A stretch of 64,000 nucleotides of DNA from an uncultured Paenibacillus sp. (lineage in GTDB: Bacteria; Bacillota; Bacilli; Paenibacillales; Paenibacillaceae). Shown here piece by piece: positions 9,152-19,826 of the stretch. Both the position numbers and the translations under genes were made by a program. The stretch spans positions 24,982 through 88,981 of the forward strand of contig CALAWP010000011.1 in the NCBI GenBank assembly GCA_937895345.1, given 5' to 3'. The notes under the pieces are model-generated. The model was given only the letters and a program-made list of their open reading frames with translations. It made no database searches and was not told the DNA's origin. Numbering within the stretch: the stretch's first letter is position 1; every line of letters begins with the position of its first letter.

Positions 9152-9178
9152 CTTAGTTTGTCTATTAAACAAACTAAG
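9152..9178. promoter_or_regulatory. XylR operator palindrome
   Basis: CTTAGTTTGT-N7-ACAAACTAAG between divergent xylA and xylR; matches the Bacillus TTAGTTTGT..ACAAACTAA operator. Confidence 0.9.
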
Positions 9179-9231: not shown

Positions 9232-10404
9232 TTGAAAACAAAAACGACGGGCGACTTGGCTCTCATCAAAAAAATCAACACCTCTATTGTCCTCGAATGC
9301 GTCATCAAACATGCGCCGCTGTCGCGGGCGGGCATTTCCGAAAAGACGGGCCTGAACAAAGCTACCGTGTCCAGTCTCGTGCAGGACTTGATCGACAGCC
9401 ATCTCGTGCTGGAGATCGGGCCGGGCGAATCGAGCGGCGGCCGCAAGCCGCTAATGCTCCTGTTCAACGAGCAGGCGGGTTATGCGATCGGGATCGACCT
9501 TGGCGTCAACTATTTGAAAGGCGTATTGACAGACTTGGGCGGCAACGTGGTGAAGGACGTCCATCAAGCGATTAAGCGAGGCGCCGCCAGCAGCGACATT
9601 CATCTGGATGCGCTGACGGCATGCATCGAGGAGCTTGCAGCGGGAGCGCCCGACAGCCCGTACGGCGTCGTCGGCATCGGCGTGGGCGTGCCGGGCATCG
9701 TCGACGACGAGGGCACGATTCTGTTTGCGCCCAATATGAAGTGGCGTCAGGTGGAACTGAAAAAGGCGCTGGAGCAGCGCTTCGAGCTGCCGGTTACGAT
9801 CGACAACGAAGCCAATGCGGGCGCGCAGGGCGAGCAAAAATTCGGCGCCGGGCGAGGCATCCGCAACCAGATTTACGTCAGCGCCGGCATCGGGATCGGA
9901 ACGGGCATTATTTTGAACAAGGAGCTGTTCAAAGGAACTTCGGGATTTTCCGGCGAGCTGGGGCACTTGTCCATTCAATTCGACGGCAAGCCGTGCAGCT
10001 GCGGCAACCGGGGCTGCTGGGAGCTGTACGCTTCGGAAAACGCCCTGCTGGAGCAAGCCGCGGAGCTTGGCTACGACAGTTTGGAAGATTTGCTGGAGGC
10101 GGCGGCGAACGGAGAGGAAGCGGTGCGGGAGCTGTTTCGCGGCATCGGCGACTATCTGGGAGTCGGCATCGCCAACATCGTCAACGTATTCAACCCCGAC
10201 GTCGTCATTATCGGCAACCGGATGAGCAAAGCGGCGGAATGGCTGCTCCCCTCCATTCAGGAAACGGTCGACCGGCGGACGCTTTCCTATCATCGCGAAC
10301 GAATGCGAATTCTGTTTGCGGAGCTGCAGGAGCAATCCGCCGTACGCGGAGCTTCCTATTATGCCATCCGGGAATTTTTGGACAAAATCAAAAGCGGACA
10401 CTGA
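9232..10404 (+). CDS. xylR: ROK-family xylose repressor
   Basis: GGAGG then TTG at 9232. N-terminal HTH (SRAGISEKTGLNKATVS), GGRKP, IDNEANAGA, ROK signature GELGHLSI, CSCGNRGCWE. Confidence 0.93.
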   Translation: MKTKTTGDLALIKKINTSIVLECVIKHAPLSRAGISEKTGLNKATVSSLVQDLIDSHLVLEIGPGESSGGRKPLMLLFNEQAGYAIGIDLGVNYLKGVLTDLGGNVVKDVHQAIKRGAASSDIHLDALTACIEELAAGAPDSPYGVVGIGVGVPGIVDDEGTILFAPNMKWRQVELKKALEQRFELPVTIDNEANAGAQGEQKFGAGRGIRNQIYVSAGIGIGTGIILNKELFKGTSGFSGELGHLSIQFDGKPCSCGNRGCWELYASENALLEQAAELGYDSLEDLLEAAANGEEAVRELFRGIGDYLGVGIANIVNVFNPDVVIIGNRMSKAAEWLLPSIQETVDRRTLSYHRERMRILFAELQEQSAVRGASYYAIREFLDKIKSGH

Positions 10405-10420
10405 ACAGGTGTCCGCTTTT
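10390..10420. terminator. Bidirectional terminator between xylR and the giant gene
   Basis: AAAAGCGGACAC-TGAACAG-GTGTCCGCTTTT, overlapping the xylR stop codon. Confidence 0.85.
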
Positions 10421-10425
10421 TTGCT

Positions 10426-13400
10426 TTATTTCACGCGATGAACGCCCGCGATTTGCGATACGGTTCCTTTAATTTCAATCGCAACCTCCGTCGTTTTGAC
10501 CGTCCCGTTATTGTAGTATGCCGTGAAAACAAAGCGGTACGGGCCGTCCTTCAGCTCCTGCTCGAAGCCTTCCTCCCACAGTTCTCCCGTCCACGCCGTG
10601 CCCGCTCCGTCCGCCTTCTTCAACTCCAGCCTCCTCGACCCGAATACCGCCTCCACCCGTTCCGCCTTCGTCGCCGTTTCGGTTGCGGTCGTATTGGAGA
10701 CAAGCATAAACTTCTCCCCCGCCCAGAAGACGTTGTAGCCGCGAGGAGCTTCCGCGTCGCCGCTTTGCTTCAAGTTGTAGTCCATCCGGCGCCGATTCCA
10801 TTGGTCGGTATGATTCACTTCGCCCGACACGGTCAACGGATATACCCGTATCGTCTTCTCCGCCATGACGGGAGCCGCTCGGCCGTCGCTGACGGTCAGC
10901 TTCATCCGCCAGTCGCCCGTCTCCGTCATCCGATGGACGGGAGCCGTCGCCGGATACGGGCGGTTAAAGACGTAGTCGAATACGTGCCGGCTGCCCGAAG
11001 GGGCGGTTAATTCGTACTGGACCGTCAGCGTATCGCCGTCCTGGTCGTCGATCTTGGAGGAAAACGCCACCGTATCTCCCTCATACACCGGCTGCGGCGA
11101 CCAGTCGAAGTCCGCCGTCGGCGGGCGGTTATTGACGATTTCTACCGTTTGGGCGACCGTTTCCGTATTCCCGTTGGGCGTTCTCGCCCTCCATTCGAAC
11201 GTATAGCGGCCGTCCGGCATTGGACCGACCGTAAACGCGGCGGACCAATCCTTCAGACCGTAACCCGTTGTCCGGACCGTTGCGGAAGTCAAATTGACCG
11301 TTCGTTGATATGCCGTTCCCTTGAACATCGTCACCGATACCGCATTGCCGTTTACGGCGGCGTCCGGATATTTGGTCGTGTCCGCCTTCAGCTTATAGCT
11401 GTCCCCGACGACCAGCGAAGTGAGATGCTGAGCCGGCGAATCGACGGCATCGATTCTTCCGCTCAGCCGAATCGGCGTTGCGACTCGAACCGTATACGTA
11501 TGGGCGGCGGTCGATCCCGCGACCGAGCCGTTGCCTCTCACGGTAAACGTATACGTGCCGTCCGGCGTCGTATTCGGAATAACAAACCTTTCATCGGCCC
11601 AGCTGATGTCGTTGCCCGTCTTCACGCCCGTATAATAGGGAACCGTGCGCGAAATGTAGCTGCCCATCGCAAACTGCAATTGGATGGCGTACGGATAACG
11701 CGTCCACAATTCGTAAGCGATCAGACTTTCGCTGGCCGGAACGCCGTTTAGCGAAAAGCCATCGTAAGCCGTCTTCAGGTTCGATTTCATTTGCACCGGC
11801 ACGGCGGATGGAAGCACGTACGTCCTTTGCAGCGGATCGGACCAGACACCTTCGATATCTTGAACGATATATTCCAGCAGGTAGGTGCCCGGCGGGACCG
11901 ATTCCGGAATGCGGGTATACACCTCCCCCGTTCCCCGGTTCGTCAGCTTGATCGACCGGGCCTGAATGCCGCGGTCCGTAGCCGCCCGCGTCACATTATG
12001 GTCCAGGTCGTAGCTCATATCTACCCAAGTGGTCCGATACCGGTTCGAATCCGTCATATAGTCGAAGTCGAGCCATACGTCCGGAATCGGTTTGCGGTGT
12101 ACTAGCACTTCGACTGCCGATTCGTTCGAATAATAGGCATAATGTTCAAAGTTAGGATCTTCGGACGGCCGATCCTTCGTTTTGCGAAACAGCATATATT
12201 TGCCCGGCTTCTGAAACGTGACCGCCGATTGATAAGGCTGCCAGTTGGCGTTCAACTTCTCGGATGCGAGCGTTTGGCCGTTGAATTGGCCGAAACCTTC
12301 CGAATTGTCGTAATAATAAGGGTCGTGAACGATTTGGAGCAGGTCTTCCTGCACCGGATCGTCCTCCCAGTCGAAATAAGCCGTCCTCGTAATCGTCTCT
12401 TCCCCGACCAGAATGAGTCTTCTGGGCGTCTCGGGATTGCTTTCGGAGATATAGGCGATCACCTCGCCTACGATATCTTCAATCGGCTTGTCGTTGGCGA
12501 TAAACTTCTCGTGACCGATTTGCGATTGGAACTCGGAATGGCCGACCAGGATCAGCTTGGCGTCATGTTTGCTCATCACATTTTGCAAATCGGCCAGCTG
12601 CGACGCTTTATTATCGGATACATAAATGACGTATTTGTTCGGGACGGGCCGCATAAACGAAGCGTCGTACGGCTGGCGAACGCTCTTGGAAATCGTGCCG
12701 CTGTAGAAGCCCGTCCAGCTGTCGTATTCGACCATCCGCGGAACCCACTCGTCGCGCGTCCAATATACGGTGCCGGAATACGTCGCTCGATAAGTCCGGG
12801 TGCAGCTCGACCCCGGCCTGCCGAAATCCGGCGGACAGCTGTCGTTGGTGCTTTCTCCTTTGCGGTCCAATGTTCCTCTATATTTACCGTCGTTATACGA
12901 TTTCGAAGATGGACAGACCGTCGTCGAAGTGCTTTTATATTCTCCGTCATCGGTATAATGGGCTTTGACCGTATTGGTGCAGCTGTCGCTGGCCGTCTTT
13001 GAATCGGTTACGGTCACAAATCTGCCCTCGTCCACGGAAAACGGCGCGTTGGAGGCGCTGCTTAACGATAACGTCCCGCTGTAACCGTTGGAGCTGTAAT
13101 AGATGCTCGACGATGGATAGGATGTGCCCGTATGGTTGCTCGTGCTGGCCGATTGCGTGTACGTATACGTCCGCATATCCCATATATCGAGGTTGGCCAG
13201 CATATTCGCCCGGGTAAAAGCGTTCGTGATCGAAACTCGGTTGTTTCGGATGTAATCCGTCGACGCCTGCTTCAAATTCGAATCCAGCATCCAGTAGACG
13301 TCCATATCCGGCATTTCGATCGGGATATCCATATACATCGTGCTGGCCGGAGCAAAATTATCGATAAAAAAGTACGTTTCAATCGTCTTTTCCTTATCGT

Positions 13401-16110
13401 CCTCCGGGACGATAAATTCCATCAGCCGTTCCTCGTCCGTCCCTTCCTTCGCATAGGCTTCGATTTTGTATTGCCCCAGCTTGTCCATCTTCGGGATGGC
13501 CGTGACGTCCCCGTCCGTTTCGTAAACGAGCGTATCGAAGGTGCCGTCGTTGTCGCGGTCGTGATAGACGCGCAGCGACTTTTCCGCTATGTAGTCTCCG
13601 TCCGTGCTGACCACGTCGTAAAAGAGCTTCAGATCGTCCAAGCGGCTGATCTGATTGGCGTAAGCGTGGGCGATGATGGCCGGCGTATGATCGGGCATAA
13701 TTTCATATTCGACCACATAAGGGTCGGAATACCGAGTGATCGATTGGCCGTTGCCGTAAGGAATAACGCGTTTGGCGGCTATGCTGATCTTGTAGCGGCC
13801 GGTCTCTTTATACATAAACATTTTTTCGGACAAGTTCGACTCGCAATACCCTTCCCTGCATTTCAAGCCGGGGTCGGTCGGATCAACGTAGCTGAACGAA
13901 GTAATTTCCAGCGGGGCGTTCTGCTCCACCCACTGATCGTTGCTGGCCGCCGACTGGTCGTAGGCGCGCATCGTCCGGTTCTGCTTGTATAAGCCTTCCA
14001 GCCGGATCGATACTCTCGGCTTGGACTCGTGGATGACGACATGTTGAATTTTGAACGATTCCGTTCCATCCGGCGCGGTAAACGTCGTTTTCACTTGCCG
14101 GAGGCCGATTCGGTCCTCCCCAAAAATAAATTGCCCACTAAAAAAACGCTCCGCATCGATTTCAATCCCATCAATGTAGACACGCTTTGCAAAATCGTTA
14201 TATCGAGCCGGTTCTTCGCAGCTCTTGCTAGGGATATAGCCCGGCGGTGCATCCGTCACGGGGAATGGAACGACATCATACCAGTTCAGCGGCCAATCGG
14301 CTTCCGGCGAAATATATTGGGGAGGCGACGGCAGCATTTCGCACGTTAAAGCGGCGGCGTTCTGAACAACGACTATCGTTTTCGTTGCAGTAGACTTGTT
14401 ATTCGTCGTCACGTCCTTGTCCACGATCGTTTGTTTAATATGGAACGTCTTGACAACTCTTTGGTTCGACGTTTCGCTAAACTTTGATTTCATAAAGTCA
14501 TAGAGATACGCTTCCACGGCCGCTTGATCTAAATAGCCAGGCGTCGGCGCTTTGACTTCGGGAATGGCCGGATCGAACGTGCGCGTCGCCTTGGTGCCGT
14601 CGTCGGCATTCGTAATCTCGAACTCGTAATAATCGGCATCCTTCCCGTACGAGAAATCCTGGTAGCCCACTTGCTTGCTTGCGAACTCGCTTCTCTTCTG
14701 GAATTGGACGCTCGGCGCTACCGCAAAATCGCTTTTCATGCTGGCCTTGTCGCCGTCCAGGGGAATGACAAGATCGCAGTTGGCGGACGCTTGCGATGGT
14801 TTAGAATCTGTATGATTGCCATTATACAAATTGACGCGGGCGGTAGTCTTAAATTCTTTGGTTCCGTCTGAGGTTTCCGTAACTTTCTGCGTGTCGATCC
14901 GCAGTTTGAAAATGCCCGTCGCTTGATTGTCTTTCATGATCACGCCATCGCTTTTCACCTTCGAATCCAACGTAATGAGCTTGTTGGTTTCCTTATCGGT
15001 TACATGCAGCTTCCAAGAGGCGATATCTTTGCGGGTATAATAGCGATTCTCCATGACGATGTTGTCATGATATTTTTCGTCTTCAAGCGTGCCGACCAGC
15101 TTCACTTCTACATCGATATACCGTTCTTTCCCGAGCGGTATCCCGCCCTCTTTAACTGGAGTGACAACGCAGCTTGCGGGAGGCTGTCTTTTCTCCGGTC
15201 CTTCAAGCTTCAATAACGGAAAGGATTGATACCATAAAGAATGAGAAACCCAGCTGTAATGATACATCATGCCGATCCCCGGTTCCCACACCGTAGGGTT
15301 TTGGGGGATGTTCATGTAGTTGCGGAAATCGGTGTTTTCATCATTTCGGGGTAAAACTGAATAGCGATTACTATACTTAACGCCCTGTGATATATTAAAC
15401 TCCATAGATCGATCAATGTTGTCTAGTATATTATCAAAATCCGAAAGAGTAACTACAACATTTTCAGCTTGTCCATAGGCTGGTCCCGGCCCACCCGGTT
15501 TATAAATATAACTGTCCGGCAAGTCTTTCCACGGCTGAAAAACCCAGTGTTTCTTTTCAAGCGGCGTACTGGTGCTGTCGTCTCGAATGAAATGGTCGTT
15601 TGGATACAGCGATCCTGTTTCATCATAACCTAAGAAACGATACTCCCCGCGTGTATTACCGCCTGTTCTAAAGTCATAAGCAGAAAAATGTCCTTCGTTT
15701 GGATACACCTTGGCATTTTCATCTTGCCAGCCGGACTTGAAATCTTGAATATGACCTGGAATGTCGTCCGGTGTACCGTATACGATCAAGTACCTTTGCC
15801 CTCTTGTTTTGACGGCAGCGTTTGTATTGGGATCGCGGCTAATGACCCACGTTTGGCGATAATAAATATCCGAATTAAACTTATATCCCGAACTTTTTCC
15901 GTCCTTTGGCTCGGAACACGGCGGTATATGCGAAGGAATTGGACCGTCTGCTACAGGGTTATACCCGCATTTATTCGCAAAACCGTTAATGGTAGAAGGT
16001 GGTTTTTGACTAGCCGCTTCGACATTGGTTGTCGTAATCCAATCAAATGGAGACAGCAAAAAAATAGCTGTCAGCAGCACGGCTATTCTTTTTTTCCAAA
16101 CTCGCTTCAT
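10426..16110 (-). CDS. Giant secreted multidomain protein (1894 aa; Athe_2463-like N-terminus, Ig/PKD-like repeats, possible interrupted vWA-like region)
   Basis: Signal peptide MKRVWKKRIAVLLTAIFLL..VEA. RGEYRFLGYDETG..PNDHF motif. PKD-like NRPPTADFDWSP..YEGDTV..DDQDGD. No LPxTG, SLH or C-terminal TM seen. GGAG RBS. Confidence 0.8.
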   Translation of the reverse strand: MKRVWKKRIAVLLTAIFLLSPFDWITTTNVEAASQKPPSTINGFANKCGYNPVADGPIPSHIPPCSEPKDGKSSGYKFNSDIYYRQTWVISRDPNTNAAVKTRGQRYLIVYGTPDDIPGHIQDFKSGWQDENAKVYPNEGHFSAYDFRTGGNTRGEYRFLGYDETGSLYPNDHFIRDDSTSTPLEKKHWVFQPWKDLPDSYIYKPGGPGPAYGQAENVVVTLSDFDNILDNIDRSMEFNISQGVKYSNRYSVLPRNDENTDFRNYMNIPQNPTVWEPGIGMMYHYSWVSHSLWYQSFPLLKLEGPEKRQPPASCVVTPVKEGGIPLGKERYIDVEVKLVGTLEDEKYHDNIVMENRYYTRKDIASWKLHVTDKETNKLITLDSKVKSDGVIMKDNQATGIFKLRIDTQKVTETSDGTKEFKTTARVNLYNGNHTDSKPSQASANCDLVIPLDGDKASMKSDFAVAPSVQFQKRSEFASKQVGYQDFSYGKDADYYEFEITNADDGTKATRTFDPAIPEVKAPTPGYLDQAAVEAYLYDFMKSKFSETSNQRVVKTFHIKQTIVDKDVTTNNKSTATKTIVVVQNAAALTCEMLPSPPQYISPEADWPLNWYDVVPFPVTDAPPGYIPSKSCEEPARYNDFAKRVYIDGIEIDAERFFSGQFIFGEDRIGLRQVKTTFTAPDGTESFKIQHVVIHESKPRVSIRLEGLYKQNRTMRAYDQSAASNDQWVEQNAPLEITSFSYVDPTDPGLKCREGYCESNLSEKMFMYKETGRYKISIAAKRVIPYGNGQSITRYSDPYVVEYEIMPDHTPAIIAHAYANQISRLDDLKLFYDVVSTDGDYIAEKSLRVYHDRDNDGTFDTLVYETDGDVTAIPKMDKLGQYKIEAYAKEGTDEERLMEFIVPEDDKEKTIETYFFIDNFAPASTMYMDIPIEMPDMDVYWMLDSNLKQASTDYIRNNRVSITNAFTRANMLANLDIWDMRTYTYTQSASTSNHTGTSYPSSSIYYSSNGYSGTLSLSSASNAPFSVDEGRFVTVTDSKTASDSCTNTVKAHYTDDGEYKSTSTTVCPSSKSYNDGKYRGTLDRKGESTNDSCPPDFGRPGSSCTRTYRATYSGTVYWTRDEWVPRMVEYDSWTGFYSGTISKSVRQPYDASFMRPVPNKYVIYVSDNKASQLADLQNVMSKHDAKLILVGHSEFQSQIGHEKFIANDKPIEDIVGEVIAYISESNPETPRRLILVGEETITRTAYFDWEDDPVQEDLLQIVHDPYYYDNSEGFGQFNGQTLASEKLNANWQPYQSAVTFQKPGKYMLFRKTKDRPSEDPNFEHYAYYSNESAVEVLVHRKPIPDVWLDFDYMTDSNRYRTTWVDMSYDLDHNVTRAATDRGIQARSIKLTNRGTGEVYTRIPESVPPGTYLLEYIVQDIEGVWSDPLQRTYVLPSAVPVQMKSNLKTAYDGFSLNGVPASESLIAYELWTRYPYAIQLQFAMGSYISRTVPYYTGVKTGNDISWADERFVIPNTTPDGTYTFTVRGNGSVAGSTAAHTYTVRVATPIRLSGRIDAVDSPAQHLTSLVVGDSYKLKADTTKYPDAAVNGNAVSVTMFKGTAYQRTVNLTSATVRTTGYGLKDWSAAFTVGPMPDGRYTFEWRARTPNGNTETVAQTVEIVNNRPPTADFDWSPQPVYEGDTVAFSSKIDDQDGDTLTVQYELTAPSGSRHVFDYVFNRPYPATAPVHRMTETGDWRMKLTVSDGRAAPVMAEKTIRVYPLTVSGEVNHTDQWNRRRMDYNLKQSGDAEAPRGYNVFWAGEKFMLVSNTTATETATKAERVEAVFGSRRLELKKADGAGTAWTGELWEEGFEQELKDGPYRFVFTAYYNNGTVKTTEVAIEIKGTVSQIAGVHRVK

Positions 16111-16125
16111 ACGGTTACTCCTCTC

Positions 16126-17400
16126 TTAGTATCTCATAACGAGAAAGTAGTATTGGCCGCTGGTATACATCCTGTAATCTTTCCCGTTGAATTTAAAGTA
16201 TTGGATGTCCTTTCCGGTCGATCCAGCCTTTTTCTCATAAGTTTCCATTAATTTTTTCAATTCAGAGCCTTTGCCGTTACCAGCATAAAGTTCTAAGATA
16301 GCGTCAAAAAATTTTGAGCTATGCTCTAGTTTTTTAGATTGTAAATAGCTTACAAATACTTCGCGAGTGGTTCCATTACTAACTCCTGCCCCAATTTCCG
16401 CCAAAGGTCGCTGGTCGAAGTAACCCATTCGCGTATAGAAAACAAACTTCTCATAATCATCATGAGAGTTAAACACACTTAATGCAGGAACATAAGAAGG
16501 ATCTAAATACCCCGTTGTCACATGTTTATCACCAAGTTCAATCAATTTGTGATAAGTATCGTATTTGAATTTATCGCTTATCAATGTTATGTTACCGTTC
16601 TTCTCAATGTAGTATTGTCCTGTTAAATCAGGCTTAAATGGTTTCCGAAGCGACTTATCGCGAAGCCTCAAAACCATTGTTAATGCTTCGGCTCTCGTAA
16701 CGTAACGCTGCGGATAAAAATATTTATTGGGATAACCATTCATTAATCCAGACATTAATACCATTGCCCTGTTTGTTCCTGCTACTTCTGAAAACGAATT
16801 GAAATCTTTAAGGCCGCTGTTTCTAATAATGAAATCCTCATAAAGCCCATCAATACTTCCCTCATACCGCTTATACCATGTACCTAGTAAATAGCTTGCT
16901 TCTTCCCTTTTAATTTGTTTCTTATAACGGTCATAATTATTTTGGGGAAATAATGAATCATTATCACTGAGAAAAGGAATCGCCTGCAAGAAATCAATGT
17001 AAGGCTTTGCCCAATATCCAGAACTTGCATTTATAAAATTGAATTTTAATTCCTTAACTTTGGACTCAATTCGCATCGTATAGAGTGGCTGGAACATATA
17101 CAGCTCGTCCAACCACTCAGGATCAAACTCCGTCTTCCCGTTTGTCGTCTTCGAGAATACCTTCAGCATCATGACAATAAACTCGTCGGCTTTGACGACT
17201 GCGTCCGGCTTGAATGTGCCGTCTGGGTATCCATCCACCAGACCGCGCTTGTAAGCCTCCAAAATCGTATCTTTGGCCCAGTGCTTTTCTATATCCGGAA
17301 AGGGCAACGGTTCGGCCGCAGCCGTTCGATCCGCCCCAATCGTTCCTGTCAGCCCGACTATGAGGGCCAGCACAACCATTCCGTTTATCCATCGTTTCAT
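16126..17400 (-). CDS. S-layer homology (SLH) domain protein, 424 aa
   Basis: Signal peptide; FPDIEKHWA..GLVDGYPDGTFKPD; LMNGYPNKYFYPQRYVTRAEA; GAGGAG RBS. Confidence 0.88.
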   Translation of the reverse strand: MKRWINGMVVLALIVGLTGTIGADRTAAAEPLPFPDIEKHWAKDTILEAYKRGLVDGYPDGTFKPDAVVKADEFIVMMLKVFSKTTNGKTEFDPEWLDELYMFQPLYTMRIESKVKELKFNFINASSGYWAKPYIDFLQAIPFLSDNDSLFPQNNYDRYKKQIKREEASYLLGTWYKRYEGSIDGLYEDFIIRNSGLKDFNSFSEVAGTNRAMVLMSGLMNGYPNKYFYPQRYVTRAEALTMVLRLRDKSLRKPFKPDLTGQYYIEKNGNITLISDKFKYDTYHKLIELGDKHVTTGYLDPSYVPALSVFNSHDDYEKFVFYTRMGYFDQRPLAEIGAGVSNGTTREVFVSYLQSKKLEHSSKFFDAILELYAGNGKGSELKKLMETYEKKAGSTGKDIQYFKFNGKDYRMYTSGQYYFLVMRY

Positions 17401-17419
17401 ATCCGTATTCCTCCTCGGA

Positions 17420-18391
17420 TCAGTTTTTTATCATCGCCGTAAGCCGGGACAAAACCTTCACCGCTTCGGCTCTCGTAACGGCTGTTTCGGGTTTGAAGGT
17501 GCCGTCCGGATAACCTCCGAATATCGAATTGTCGCTGACCAAATTGATCGCCGCCCGATATTTTCCTTCCAGCCCGGCCGTGTCTGCATAATTGCTTTCC
17601 TTAGGCTGATCATCCGACACCAGCCGCAGCAGTTCAGCCGCTAACAAAGCGACATCCTTGCGCTTGAAAGATTTACCCCAATCCGCTTGATTCCAATGCG
17701 AAGCAATCCCCAAATCGTTGGCAGCCGCTAAATAAGGAGCCGACCAGCTCTGCCCGGCGGGCGAAGCAAAGTCATATTCCTTCCAGCTCAACTCGCGCCC
17801 AAGGTTGTCGTCGAGCATTTTCCAACGGAAGGCGTTCGTCCATTGGCGCTTCCCGTTCGGCAGTTCTTCCGTAAGCGCCATGGCAAGCATCTTTATAAGC
17901 GCTTCGCCGGTAACGGGATCGCCGGGGCCGAACTTGCCGTTGCCGTATCCGCTTACGATTCCTTGTTTCGCCATATCCGTAATGGCGTCCTTCGCCCAAT
18001 GATTCGCTATATCGGCGAATGGCGGAATATCGACGAGCAAATTGAAGTAGGCGGGCTTCGAAGCTTTGATCTCGAAGGCATAGACGCCCTTCGGCGCCGG
18101 CTTCACGACAAAATATTGCCGAAAGCACGTGCCGCTCGGACAAGCCTGCTTCTGGCTTCGCCCGGCTTTCGCCTGGCTGCCGCCGGGAAGCGTCATGACG
18201 GTTTGAAATGGCTCGCCGTACCCTTCGATCGCAAATTCGACATAATCCGCGTTTTCCTTCAGCTCGTAACTCTTCAGAACGACCGCTTGATCCCCGGCCT
18301 CCTTCGCTTCTCCGGCCGCAGCCAACGCCATATGGGCCAGCAATAAAAGTGAAACAATTCCAATTATGCCATTACGTTTATGTTGTATCAT
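17420..18391 (-). CDS. SLH domain protein, 323 aa, with a small N-terminal beta domain
   Basis: Signal peptide; FADIANHWAK..GIVSGYGNGKFGPGD; GGYPDGTFKPETAVTRAEA; AAGGAG RBS. Confidence 0.88.
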   Translation of the reverse strand: MIQHKRNGIIGIVSLLLLAHMALAAAGEAKEAGDQAVVLKSYELKENADYVEFAIEGYGEPFQTVMTLPGGSQAKAGRSQKQACPSGTCFRQYFVVKPAPKGVYAFEIKASKPAYFNLLVDIPPFADIANHWAKDAITDMAKQGIVSGYGNGKFGPGDPVTGEALIKMLAMALTEELPNGKRQWTNAFRWKMLDDNLGRELSWKEYDFASPAGQSWSAPYLAAANDLGIASHWNQADWGKSFKRKDVALLAAELLRLVSDDQPKESNYADTAGLEGKYRAAINLVSDNSIFGGYPDGTFKPETAVTRAEAVKVLSRLTAMIKN

Positions 18392-18453
18392 GATTTACAC
18401 TCCTTGCCAATCATTTTTCTGATCAACGATAACCCGCAAAACAAACGAAAAAA

Positions 18454-18494
18454 AGCACGCTTCTCCCTGTCTGTACAGAGAGCAAGCGTGCTTC
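18454..18494 (-). terminator. Terminator downstream of the MFS gene
   Basis: AAGCACGCTT..AAGCGTGCTT stem with an A-tract on the left (U-tract on the minus strand). Confidence 0.75.
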
Positions 18495-18590
18495 GCTTTG
18501 CCTGATAACGTTATTCCATTTTTACATACATCGTTGGTTTAAATGATACCTTGGAGCGCGTAAATTGTCAACATTTGTAACCCGACATTT

Positions 18591-19826
18591 TTAATGCCGA
18601 TCCTCGCGCCGATCCTTCGGCAGCATGATCGCGAGCAATCCGAGAAGCGGCAGCACGCTGACCATAACCATGACGTACGCCATCCCTTGCACATCCGCGA
18701 TCTTGCCCAGCACGACGGAGCCGAGCGCTCCCATGCCGAAGGCAAGACCCGTAATGAGGCCCGATGCCGTGCCGACCTTGCCCGGCATCAGCTCCTGGGC
18801 GTAGACGACGCTGACGGAGAAGCCGGACTGCAAAATGAAGCCCATGACGGCAATGACCGGATAGACCCAAGCCTGCGGCAGATGAGGCAGCAGCAGCGCG
18901 AACGGAGCGGCGCCGAGGATGGAAATGAGCATCATTTTTTTCCGTCCGATCCGGTCGGCCGCGATGCCGCCCAGAAACGTGCCGGCAACGCCGGCCGCCA
19001 TAAACAGAAACAGCGGCACTTGAGCGGCGGATATCGAAATGCCGTACGTTTCTTTAGCGTAAAATTGATAGAAGTTGCCGATAGCCGCCGCATACCAGGA
19101 ACGCGCAAAGACGACGATCAACAGGATGGACAGCGCAAAAGCGACGATGCGGCCGGCATAAGGCGCCGGGGCGCGGCCAGCGGCAGACGGGGTCTTCTTC
19201 CGAACCTTGCCGCCTTCCTCCGCCAGGCGGGACGCGTACCACGGCACGACCTTGAACAAAATGGCGATCGCCAGCGCCGCAAGCAGCATCCCCCAGGCCG
19301 CTCCCCGCTGTCCGAGCGGAATAAAAATGAAAATGGTCATAAGCGGCGCCAGCGCTTGACCGAAGTTGCCGCCGACCTGATAGATCGACTGCGCAAACGC
19401 GCGGCGGTTGCCGGCGGCCAGATGAACGACGCGCGACCCCTCCGGATGGAACACCGCCGAGCCGAGGCCGACGAAAACGACGGACAGCAGCAGCAGCGCG
19501 AAATTCGGGGCGAACGCGAGCCCCGCCATGCCGGCCATGCTGCACAGCATGCCGACCGGCAGCATCCATGGCGTCGGCCTTCTGTCCGACCAGAGGCCGA
19601 CGACGGGCTGCATGACCGATGAGGTCATATTGAGCGTAAAAGCGATCCAGCCTACTTGCGTGTAGGACAATTTCAACGTTTCCTCAAAAACCGGAAACAA
19701 AGCCGACACGACGGCTTGCATGGAATCGTTCAGCAGGTGAACCGAGCTGATGGCCATAAGGATCGTATAGACGGTAGCCGAGCGAAGCGCTCCGCTCCGT
19801 TGGCCTGCAATGGCATTGCTTGACAT
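18591..19826 (-). CDS. MFS transporter (Fsr/fosmidomycin-resistance-like)
   Basis: About 12 TM; HLLNDSMQ, GLWSDRR, GSAVFHPEG, GGIAADRIGRK. Confidence 0.85.
   Translation of the reverse strand: MSSNAIAGQRSGALRSATVYTILMAISSVHLLNDSMQAVVSALFPVFEETLKLSYTQVGWIAFTLNMTSSVMQPVVGLWSDRRPTPWMLPVGMLCSMAGMAGLAFAPNFALLLLSVVFVGLGSAVFHPEGSRVVHLAAGNRRAFAQSIYQVGGNFGQALAPLMTIFIFIPLGQRGAAWGMLLAALAIAILFKVVPWYASRLAEEGGKVRKKTPSAAGRAPAPYAGRIVAFALSILLIVVFARSWYAAAIGNFYQFYAKETYGISISAAQVPLFLFMAAGVAGTFLGGIAADRIGRKKMMLISILGAAPFALLLPHLPQAWVYPVIAVMGFILQSGFSVSVVYAQELMPGKVGTASGLITGLAFGMGALGSVVLGKIADVQGMAYVMVMVSVLPLLGLLAIMLPKDRREDRH

Follow-up and report, generated by a model that had tools for sequence, protein, structure and literature searches.

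How might a secreted protein of 1894 amino acids (aa) that itself lacks a wall anchor be held on a Gram-positive cell surface? The question is raised by a three-gene cassette in a stretch of 64,000 nucleotides (nt) from an uncultured Paenibacillus sp. (contig CALAWP010000011.1, positions 24,982 to 88,981), here called the window, in which two genes for small secreted S-layer homology (SLH) proteins precede the gene for the giant protein. The answer that we favor, with a probability of roughly 60%, is a cognate pair of anchor and cargo, which would display the giant on the surface non-covalently and without the help of a sortase. This reading rests on comparative sequence analysis. The three genes are:

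17420 to 18391, minus strand: gene 1, secreted SLH protein of 323 aa (P0001), with a Pfam SLH match and a signal-peptide-like N-terminus
16126 to 17400, minus strand: gene 2, secreted anchor or adaptor candidate of 424 aa (P0002), so classified by its SLH region, its C-terminal domain (C-domain) and its adjacency to the giant gene
10426 to 16110, minus strand: gene 3, secreted Athe_2463-domain protein of 1894 aa (P0003), without its own wall anchor

An initial annotation of this DNA had reported three co-directional genes 15-19 bp apart, all with signal peptides, and had taken the first two for SLH proteins and the giant for an anchorless one. These observations hold. The gaps are 19 nt between gene 1 and gene 2 and 15 nt between gene 2 and the giant gene, and both contain a Shine-Dalgarno site (GAGGAGG, AGAGGAG). 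Pfam SLH (PF00395, cut-off 20.8 bits) matched the 323-aa protein with 83.8 bits (E=8e-24) and the 424-aa protein with 75.5 bits (E=3e-21), while the giant had no SLH match at E<=0.1. Each protein has a single hydrophobic segment, which is N-terminal and, judged from the sequence, resembles a signal peptide with a positive n-region and an A-x-A-type site. No LPXTG-like motif ([LN]Px[TSA][GNSA]) and no hydrophobic window beyond the N-terminus was found in any of the three, so that none has the combination of C-terminal LPXTG motif, hydrophobic segment and charged tail that marks sortase-anchored proteins. Among the Pfam matches of the three proteins at E<=0.1 there were no cohesin or dockerin families either.

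The two SLH proteins are built differently. In the 424-aa protein the signal peptide is followed by the SLH region (residues ~29-249) and a C-domain of ~170 aa (residues ~255-424), which had no family match; a search with this C-domain returned only ~420-aa SLH partners. The 323-aa protein has a signal peptide, an N-domain of ~95 aa with no assigned fold and a C-terminal SLH region, and its full-length orthologs occur only upstream of the ~1800-1900-aa Paenibacillus giants. SLH anchoring in cis is common in the own genome, where large proteins of >800 aa account for most of the ~100 SLH repeats. A CsaB-like gene for the pyruvyltransferase of the secondary cell-wall polymer (SCWP) is also present in two pieces at two contig ends (G000:C38:7930-8451 and C59:12-410), which match TIGR03609 positions 1-164 (196 bits) and 172-298 (74 bits). 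Each piece alone is under the 213-bit cut-off, and the split probably reflects an assembly break, not a pseudogene. Thus SLH anchoring appears to be in use in this genome, and the giant is an exception that would need an anchor in trans.

The N-terminal part of the giant belongs to a named family. Residues 105-298 match the NCBIfam family NF047340, "Athe_2463 domain", with 128.3 bits (E=4.4e-37; curated cut-off 36 bits), and a six-frame search of the own genome found this family as a single copy (134.7 bits):

15217 to 15798, minus strand: Athe_2463 domain (NF047340), giant residues 105-298, proposed docking module (E=4e-37)

The initial annotation had regarded the architecture as one without a characterised function, and this stands, but the giant is a member of the Athe_2463 domain-containing proteins. 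There are ~70 near-full-length relatives, mainly from Paenibacillus and Cohnella, and most of them are annotated merely by that family name. The family is named after Athe_2463 of Caldicellulosiruptor bescii. Athe_2463 and its neighbor Athe_2464 are secreted proteins of unassigned function that were detected extracellularly with co-varying abundances, and both were more abundant (~16-fold) on xylan or xylose (PMC5865380). Athe_2464 is a predicted lipoprotein of 627 aa (supplement of PMC5865380). A search with a 449-aa Cohnella family member, aimed at Caldicellulosiruptor proteins, returned only the query itself.

If the 424-aa protein is a dedicated partner of the Athe_2463 domain, the two genes should travel together. 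We collected 88 loci, which were annotated with a crude open reading frame (ORF) caller, a purpose-built SLH hidden Markov model (HMM) and phmmer. The idea of dedicated SLH partners would be in trouble if homologs of the giant usually lacked an SLH neighbor, but 41 of the 43 distinct Athe_2463-domain genes in the Paenibacillaceae loci are immediately preceded by an SLH gene on the same strand. The distance between the two is -23 to +109 nt, mostly below 25 nt, and the genes often overlap. Of the two exceptions, L004 is an ORF-calling failure in a metagenome-assembled genome, where tblastn still finds an SLH N-terminus, and L088 has a partner with a copper amine oxidase N-terminal domain (Cu_amine_oxidN1) in the place of SLH. 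A distant class of ~930-aa proteins, near or below the family cut-off, has a Cu_amine_oxidN1 partner of 271-340 aa in all six loci. Five out-of-sample members, one from Vulcanibacillus and four from metagenomic contigs, follow suit: the gene immediately before each encodes a partner, with SLH in two cases and Cu_amine_oxidN1 in three, at gaps of -4 to +17 nt. In total, a gene for a small secreted protein lies directly upstream of the Athe_2463-domain gene in 54/54 loci. The partners consist of SLH or Cu_amine_oxidN1 followed by a C-domain of ~130-180 aa. The cargo proteins in these loci range from 343 to 2600 aa, their subfamilies share <30% identity, and the genomic contexts are unrelated. 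Since cargo size and context vary, the common denominator is the partner together with the N-terminal domain. Four subtypes were distinguished:

A1: giants of ~1800-1900 aa in Paenibacillus, with P0001-like and P0002-like SLH genes
A2: giants of 1700-1775 aa in Cohnella, with one SLH gene of ~413 aa
B: giants of 2070-2250 aa, with one SLH gene of ~330-350 aa
D: proteins of 432-918 aa, with one SLH gene of ~350 aa

A profile of the N-domain searched against 1.84 billion representatives matched only 390 clusters (50% identity) at E<=1e-3. The 150 representatives listed, from which the five out-of-sample members were taken, are proteins of 126-2600 aa, and in every one the Athe_2463 domain starts within the first ~200 residues, directly after the signal peptide, and is followed by variable cargo. 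The family is above the cut-off in 59 of 401 Paenibacillaceae genomes, and the cassette is accessory, not core.

One alternative is that the three proteins are independent and merely co-transcribed, the SLH proteins being ordinary S-layer-associated proteins and the giant being released to the medium. It agrees with the identification of C. bescii Athe_2463 in the extracellular proteome and with the very large number of SLH proteins in this genome. We consider it unlikely, since a partner is adjacent in 54/54 loci despite subfamilies of <30% identity and unrelated contexts, translation of the two genes is coupled, the C-domain is retained when the anchor module changes, and gene 2 co-diverges with the N-domain of the giant. 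The last two points are described below. The dedicated-adaptor role that had been proposed for both SLH proteins is therefore well supported by comparative genomics for the 424-aa protein. It does not extend in this form to the 323-aa protein, which is restricted to the ~1800-1900-aa Paenibacillus subtype and, as a third component particular to that lineage, may serve as a second tether or play an accessory part.

The exchange of anchor modules was seen in the partner C-domains. The C-domain of the type-B SLH partners is homologous to that of the Cu_amine_oxidN1 partners (hhalign 99.4%, E 1e-21), and the type-B C-domain HMM matched the Vulcanibacillus Cu_amine_oxidN1 partner with E 1.5e-20; thus one C-domain family occurs on two different N-terminal modules. 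The A1 and A2 C-domains are related over their full length (E 2e-4). Type A, in contrast, showed no detectable relationship to types B and D or to the Cu-type of the ~930-aa class. There are thus several partner subfamilies, parallel to the subfamilies of the Athe_2463 domain. A common helix-helix-beta-hairpin pattern across the partner C-domains had been noted by eye, but hhalign did not support it and we dropped it.

The same data bear on another alternative, in which the upstream partner helps the Athe_2463 domain to be exported, folded or assembled, in the manner of a chaperone or usher, and the wall module merely holds this factor at the secretion site. The adjacency and the coupling fit this as well, and giant beta-rich proteins often need folding help outside the cytoplasm. 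However, the partner C-domains are small (~130-180 aa) and have no similarity to known foldases, and the swap of SLH, Cu_amine_oxidN1 and, in C. bescii, lipoprotein attachment is explained most simply by anchoring. We regard an assembly factor in the place of a tether as distinctly unlikely; the two roles are not mutually exclusive.

Further evidence came from a near-identical strain. A Logan contig (L090) carries the same locus, and nucleotide identity to the window is 93-100% across the lactonase, MFS, gene 1, giant residues >~300, xylR, xylA and xylB. One block departs from this:

15250 to 17350: AT-rich divergent block covering gene 2 and the N-terminal ~290 residues of the giant, defined by nucleotide identity and GC content against L090

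Within the block, identity falls to 68-89% and the GC content is 30-45%. The protein identity profiles agree with the nucleotide block, and its edges coincide with gene and domain borders. This suggests that the two modules proposed to interact evolve or get exchanged as one unit.

Taken as an anchor and its cargo, the cassette would work as follows. The 424-aa protein would be exported, and its SLH region would bind pyruvylated SCWP. Its ~170-aa C-domain would then capture the giant by the Athe_2463 domain at its N-terminus. This cargo, a predicted string of about a dozen beta-sandwiches, some of them probably Ca2+-stabilised, together with an alpha/beta domain that has a beta-hairpin arm, would project from the wall as an adhesin or a canopy-like surface protein. 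Both the binding between partner and cargo and the wall localization of the giant are what we infer from the genes.

Several points weigh against this reading. Adjacency is compatible with other kinds of coupling, and the partner could be a chaperone, an assembly factor or a co-regulated independent surface protein. The type A C-domain has no homology detectable by hhalign to those of types B and D or to the Cu-type of the ~930-aa class, and since the C-domain subfamilies are not detectably homologous, no universal docking fold is demonstrated for the type-A partner of the window. Cu_amine_oxidN1 is not experimentally established as a wall-binding module, and the presence of Athe_2463 in the C. 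bescii secretome is also compatible with release in place of tethering. The divergent block is contiguous DNA, so a single recombination event would suffice to explain it without selection on an interface; it is suggestive but no proof.

What the cargo might do was examined at the level of fold. Alignment-based AlphaFold2 models were obtained for residues 30-925 (predicted local distance difference test, pLDDT, 87.4) and 915-1894 (pLDDT 86.8). They contain, in order, a mixed, mostly beta N-terminal domain (~residues 35-310), five beta-sandwiches, an alpha/beta domain, and six to seven further beta-sandwiches including a PKD-like one. The beta-sandwich and PKD-like segments that the initial annotation had read from the sequence were thus recovered in both models and in weak PKD profile matches. 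Two domains can be placed on the DNA:

12436 to 13308, minus strand: central alpha/beta domain, giant residues ~935-1225 (DSSP of the model)
10945 to 11184, minus strand: PKD-like domain, giant residues ~1643-1722 (weak profile matches)

The central domain is broken by a Cys-rich insertion that forms very long beta-hairpins with [YF][SR]GT[LVI] repeats and contains invariant alignment columns. The PKD-like domain is followed by a C-terminal beta-sandwich of ~160 aa, with ~50% identity to other Paenibacillus giants. The family profile matched solved PKD domains weakly at residues ~1643-1722 (E 0.016-0.06). Pfam gave no PKD match (PF00801/PF18911) in the giant and only sub-threshold Y_Y_Y/DUF4625 matches; several homologs of the giant have precomputed PF00801/PF18911. 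Invariant DxDxDG-like motifs (e.g. D837/D839/D851 and D1364-D1370) suggest Ca2+-stabilised modules.

When the giant and a profile of 18 family members were compared by sequence with all PDB chains, nothing came up beyond the weak PKD matches. Foldseek was run on both model halves with PDB as the target, and on the N-terminal half with BFVD as well; it found only generic multi-Ig/FN3 strings with template-modelling (TM) scores of 0.1-0.2, including protocadherins, contactins, complement/alpha-2-macroglobulin MG domains, SbsB, a Haloferax S-layer protein, GhpA, mastigoneme and PrgB. An alpha-2-macroglobulin or thioester protein was considered and rejected, as none of the 12 cysteines of the giant precedes xEQ (no CxEQ) and the Foldseek matches to C3/ECAM are generic (TM 0.1-0.16). 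Pfam, NCBIfam, the PDB sequence search and Foldseek all gave no sign of an enzyme domain or catalytic fold. Projection from the wall is suggested by the long string of beta-sandwiches, and an adhesin or canopy-like function is favored on account of the architecture, the variability and the lack of an enzyme fold.

Giant residues ~400-525 (window ~14535-14910) are missing in the A2 giants of Cohnella, which themselves have no P0001-like gene. One may speculate that P0001 is tied to this segment, a correlation that comes from two clades only.

The cassette sits beside xylose genes, which raises the possibility that the giant is primarily directed at xylan or hemicellulose, by binding or by catalysis, as a member of the xylose regulon. 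The order of the slot is lactonase-MFS, cassette, xylR(ROK)-xylA-xylB, and the end of the operon is marked by a terminator:

10390 to 10420, both strands: bidirectional intrinsic terminator, common to the three-gene operon and the convergent xylR-like ROK gene

In favor of this are the adjoining xylR-xylA-xylB and the higher abundance of C. bescii Athe_2463 and Athe_2464 on xylan or xylose, as described above. However, a perfect 25-bp palindromic XylR operator (TTAGTTTGTCTATTAAACAAACTAA) at 9153-9177, between the divergent xylA and xylR-like ROK genes, is the only one in the window, and none lies upstream of the cassette. The link between cassette and xylose is therefore positional only, and control of the cassette by XylR was rejected. 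Pfam, NCBIfam and the fold search found no carbohydrate-binding module (CBM) or glycoside-hydrolase domain in the giant. Family members elsewhere adjoin CRISPR-cas or relaxase genes, and the same chromosomal slot carries unrelated SLH-plus-giant cassettes (L010, L012). We consider a xylan-directed giant the least probable of the three alternatives, although an adhesin-type giant could possibly have a polysaccharide ligand. All three are less well supported than the pair of anchor and cargo.

The slot itself is variable. GC content drops from 0.55-0.59 in the flanks to 0.45-0.48 between 14 and 18 kb of the window. Comparison of loci L001-L015 and L072-L076 showed that the interval between MFS and xylR (window ~10400-18600) holds A1, B or other SLH-plus-giant cassettes in related Paenibacillus species. 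These cassettes have in common only a leader and the ~240-aa C-terminal end of the giant with PKD plus beta-sandwich (~50% identity). The leader consists of two elements:

18543 to 18571, minus strand: sigma-A-type promoter-like site, TTGACA-17 nt-TATCAT, between the MFS stop and the hairpin (11/12 consensus matches)
18451 to 18496, minus strand: conserved hairpin with U-run, GCGAAGCACGC...GCGTGCTTTTTTT, ~60 nt before gene 1, resembling an intrinsic terminator

Across 22 aligned loci the -35 TTGACA is invariant and the -10 is GTAAnAT-like; the conserved promoter pattern is TTGACAGA-N14-TGAAGTAACAT-like and is followed by the hairpin (window 18451-18571, minus strand). The 3' side of the hairpin is GYGTGCTTTTT in the conserved form, with GCGTGC in the window. 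Promoter plus hairpin is single-copy in the own genome. Of 401 Paenibacillaceae genomes, 76 contain it, almost without exception in one copy, and a reversed control gave 0 matches. The outer stem is invariant and the inner stem covaries, being paired in all 62 distinct versions; six of the 16 consensus pairs have compensatory changes. Rfam had no match for the leader. Since the leader precedes A1, B and other, differing SLH-plus-giant cassettes, it may act as an attenuator or small RNA of an unclassified kind, and it may gate transcription of the cassette.

Some family members are found in other surroundings. Three small pairs, L092 (SLH partner and 709 aa), L093 (Cu_amine_oxidN1 partner and 343 aa) and L095 (Cu_amine_oxidN1 partner and 632 aa), have relaxase (Replic_Relax), FtsK/SpoIIIE, NikA-like, helix-turn-helix and toxin-antitoxin genes as neighbors. 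They appear to be on conjugative or integrative elements, and their cargo may be mating or exclusion surface proteins. In Vulcanibacillus modesticaldus (L091), a Cu_amine_oxidN1 partner and a 1682-aa CARDB/Athe_2463-domain protein lie between a Fic/VbhA pair and a CRISPR-cas locus, and a gene for a 266-aa PKD protein overlaps the 3' end of the giant gene.

Among known systems, the cellulosome offers a close likeness. In Clostridium (Acetivibrio) thermocellum, the SLH scaffoldins SdbA, OlpB and Orf2p hold CipA through their type II cohesins and its type II dockerin. There, too, a large modular secreted protein without an anchor is held in trans by small or medium-sized proteins whose SLH triplet binds the wall polymer, independently of sortase and through a dedicated docking pair, a pair that is predicted from the genes in the present case. 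Unlike the cellulosome, the three proteins of the window have neither cohesin nor dockerin, the putative docking module is N-terminal instead of C-terminal, partner and cargo genes invariably lie side by side with coupled translation, the anchor module can be either SLH or Cu_amine_oxidN1, and the giant cargo has no recognizable enzymes or cohesins.

Two-component S-layers also combine a large exposed subunit rich in beta-sandwiches with a smaller non-covalent anchor. In Sulfolobus these are the Ig-like-rich canopy SlaA and the anchor SlaB, and in Clostridioides difficile the wall-binding high-molecular-weight and the exposed low-molecular-weight subunits of SlpA. Their genes are co-transcribed, or the subunits come from one precursor, and S-layer genes are core and highly expressed. 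The present cassette differs in being accessory (59/401 genomes) and in anchor chemistry, and the likeness is at the level of fold class only. Cis-anchored SLH proteins, such as SpaA/SlhA of Paenibacillus alvei, the BSLs of Bacillus anthracis and SbsB of Geobacillus, share the principle of SLH-to-SCWP anchoring, and SbsB was among the generic Foldseek matches. In these proteins the SLH and the functional part are on one polypeptide, whereas here they are on two genes.

The C. bescii pair resembles the cassette in that Athe_2463 gives its name to the N-domain family of the giant and shares an operon with an envelope-attached neighbor. It differs in that Athe_2464 is a predicted lipoprotein and not an SLH protein and in that its induction by xylan and xylose has no regulatory counterpart at the cassette of the window.

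A wider proposal is more tentative, and we would put it somewhat short of even odds. The Athe_2463 N-domain and the partner C-domain might form a previously unrecognized cognate docking family, a functional analog of cohesin and dockerin with several specificity subtypes, by which Firmicutes hang variable cargo, as small as the ~340-aa proteins of mobile elements and as large as rods of 2600 aa, on SLH, Cu_amine_oxidN1 or lipid anchors. The Paenibacillus pair would then sit in a recombination hot-spot under an unclassified leader RNA, with an interface that diversifies fast.

If the anchor-cargo pairing is true, it would be a second, structurally unrelated solution for anchoring large proteins in trans on Gram-positive walls, for which SLH-cohesin/dockerin has been the example so far. 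An uncharacterised domain family (~390 clusters at 50% identity) would gain a role, as would the C-domains found in numerous small proteins annotated as "SLH domain" or "copper amine oxidase N-terminal domain" proteins, and those who display proteins on the surface of Bacillota could gain docking pairs that are compact and orthogonal. For the organism itself, the variable slot, the low GC content and the hyper-divergent block of anchor and N-domain point to a surface structure that phage, competitors or hosts drive to diversify.

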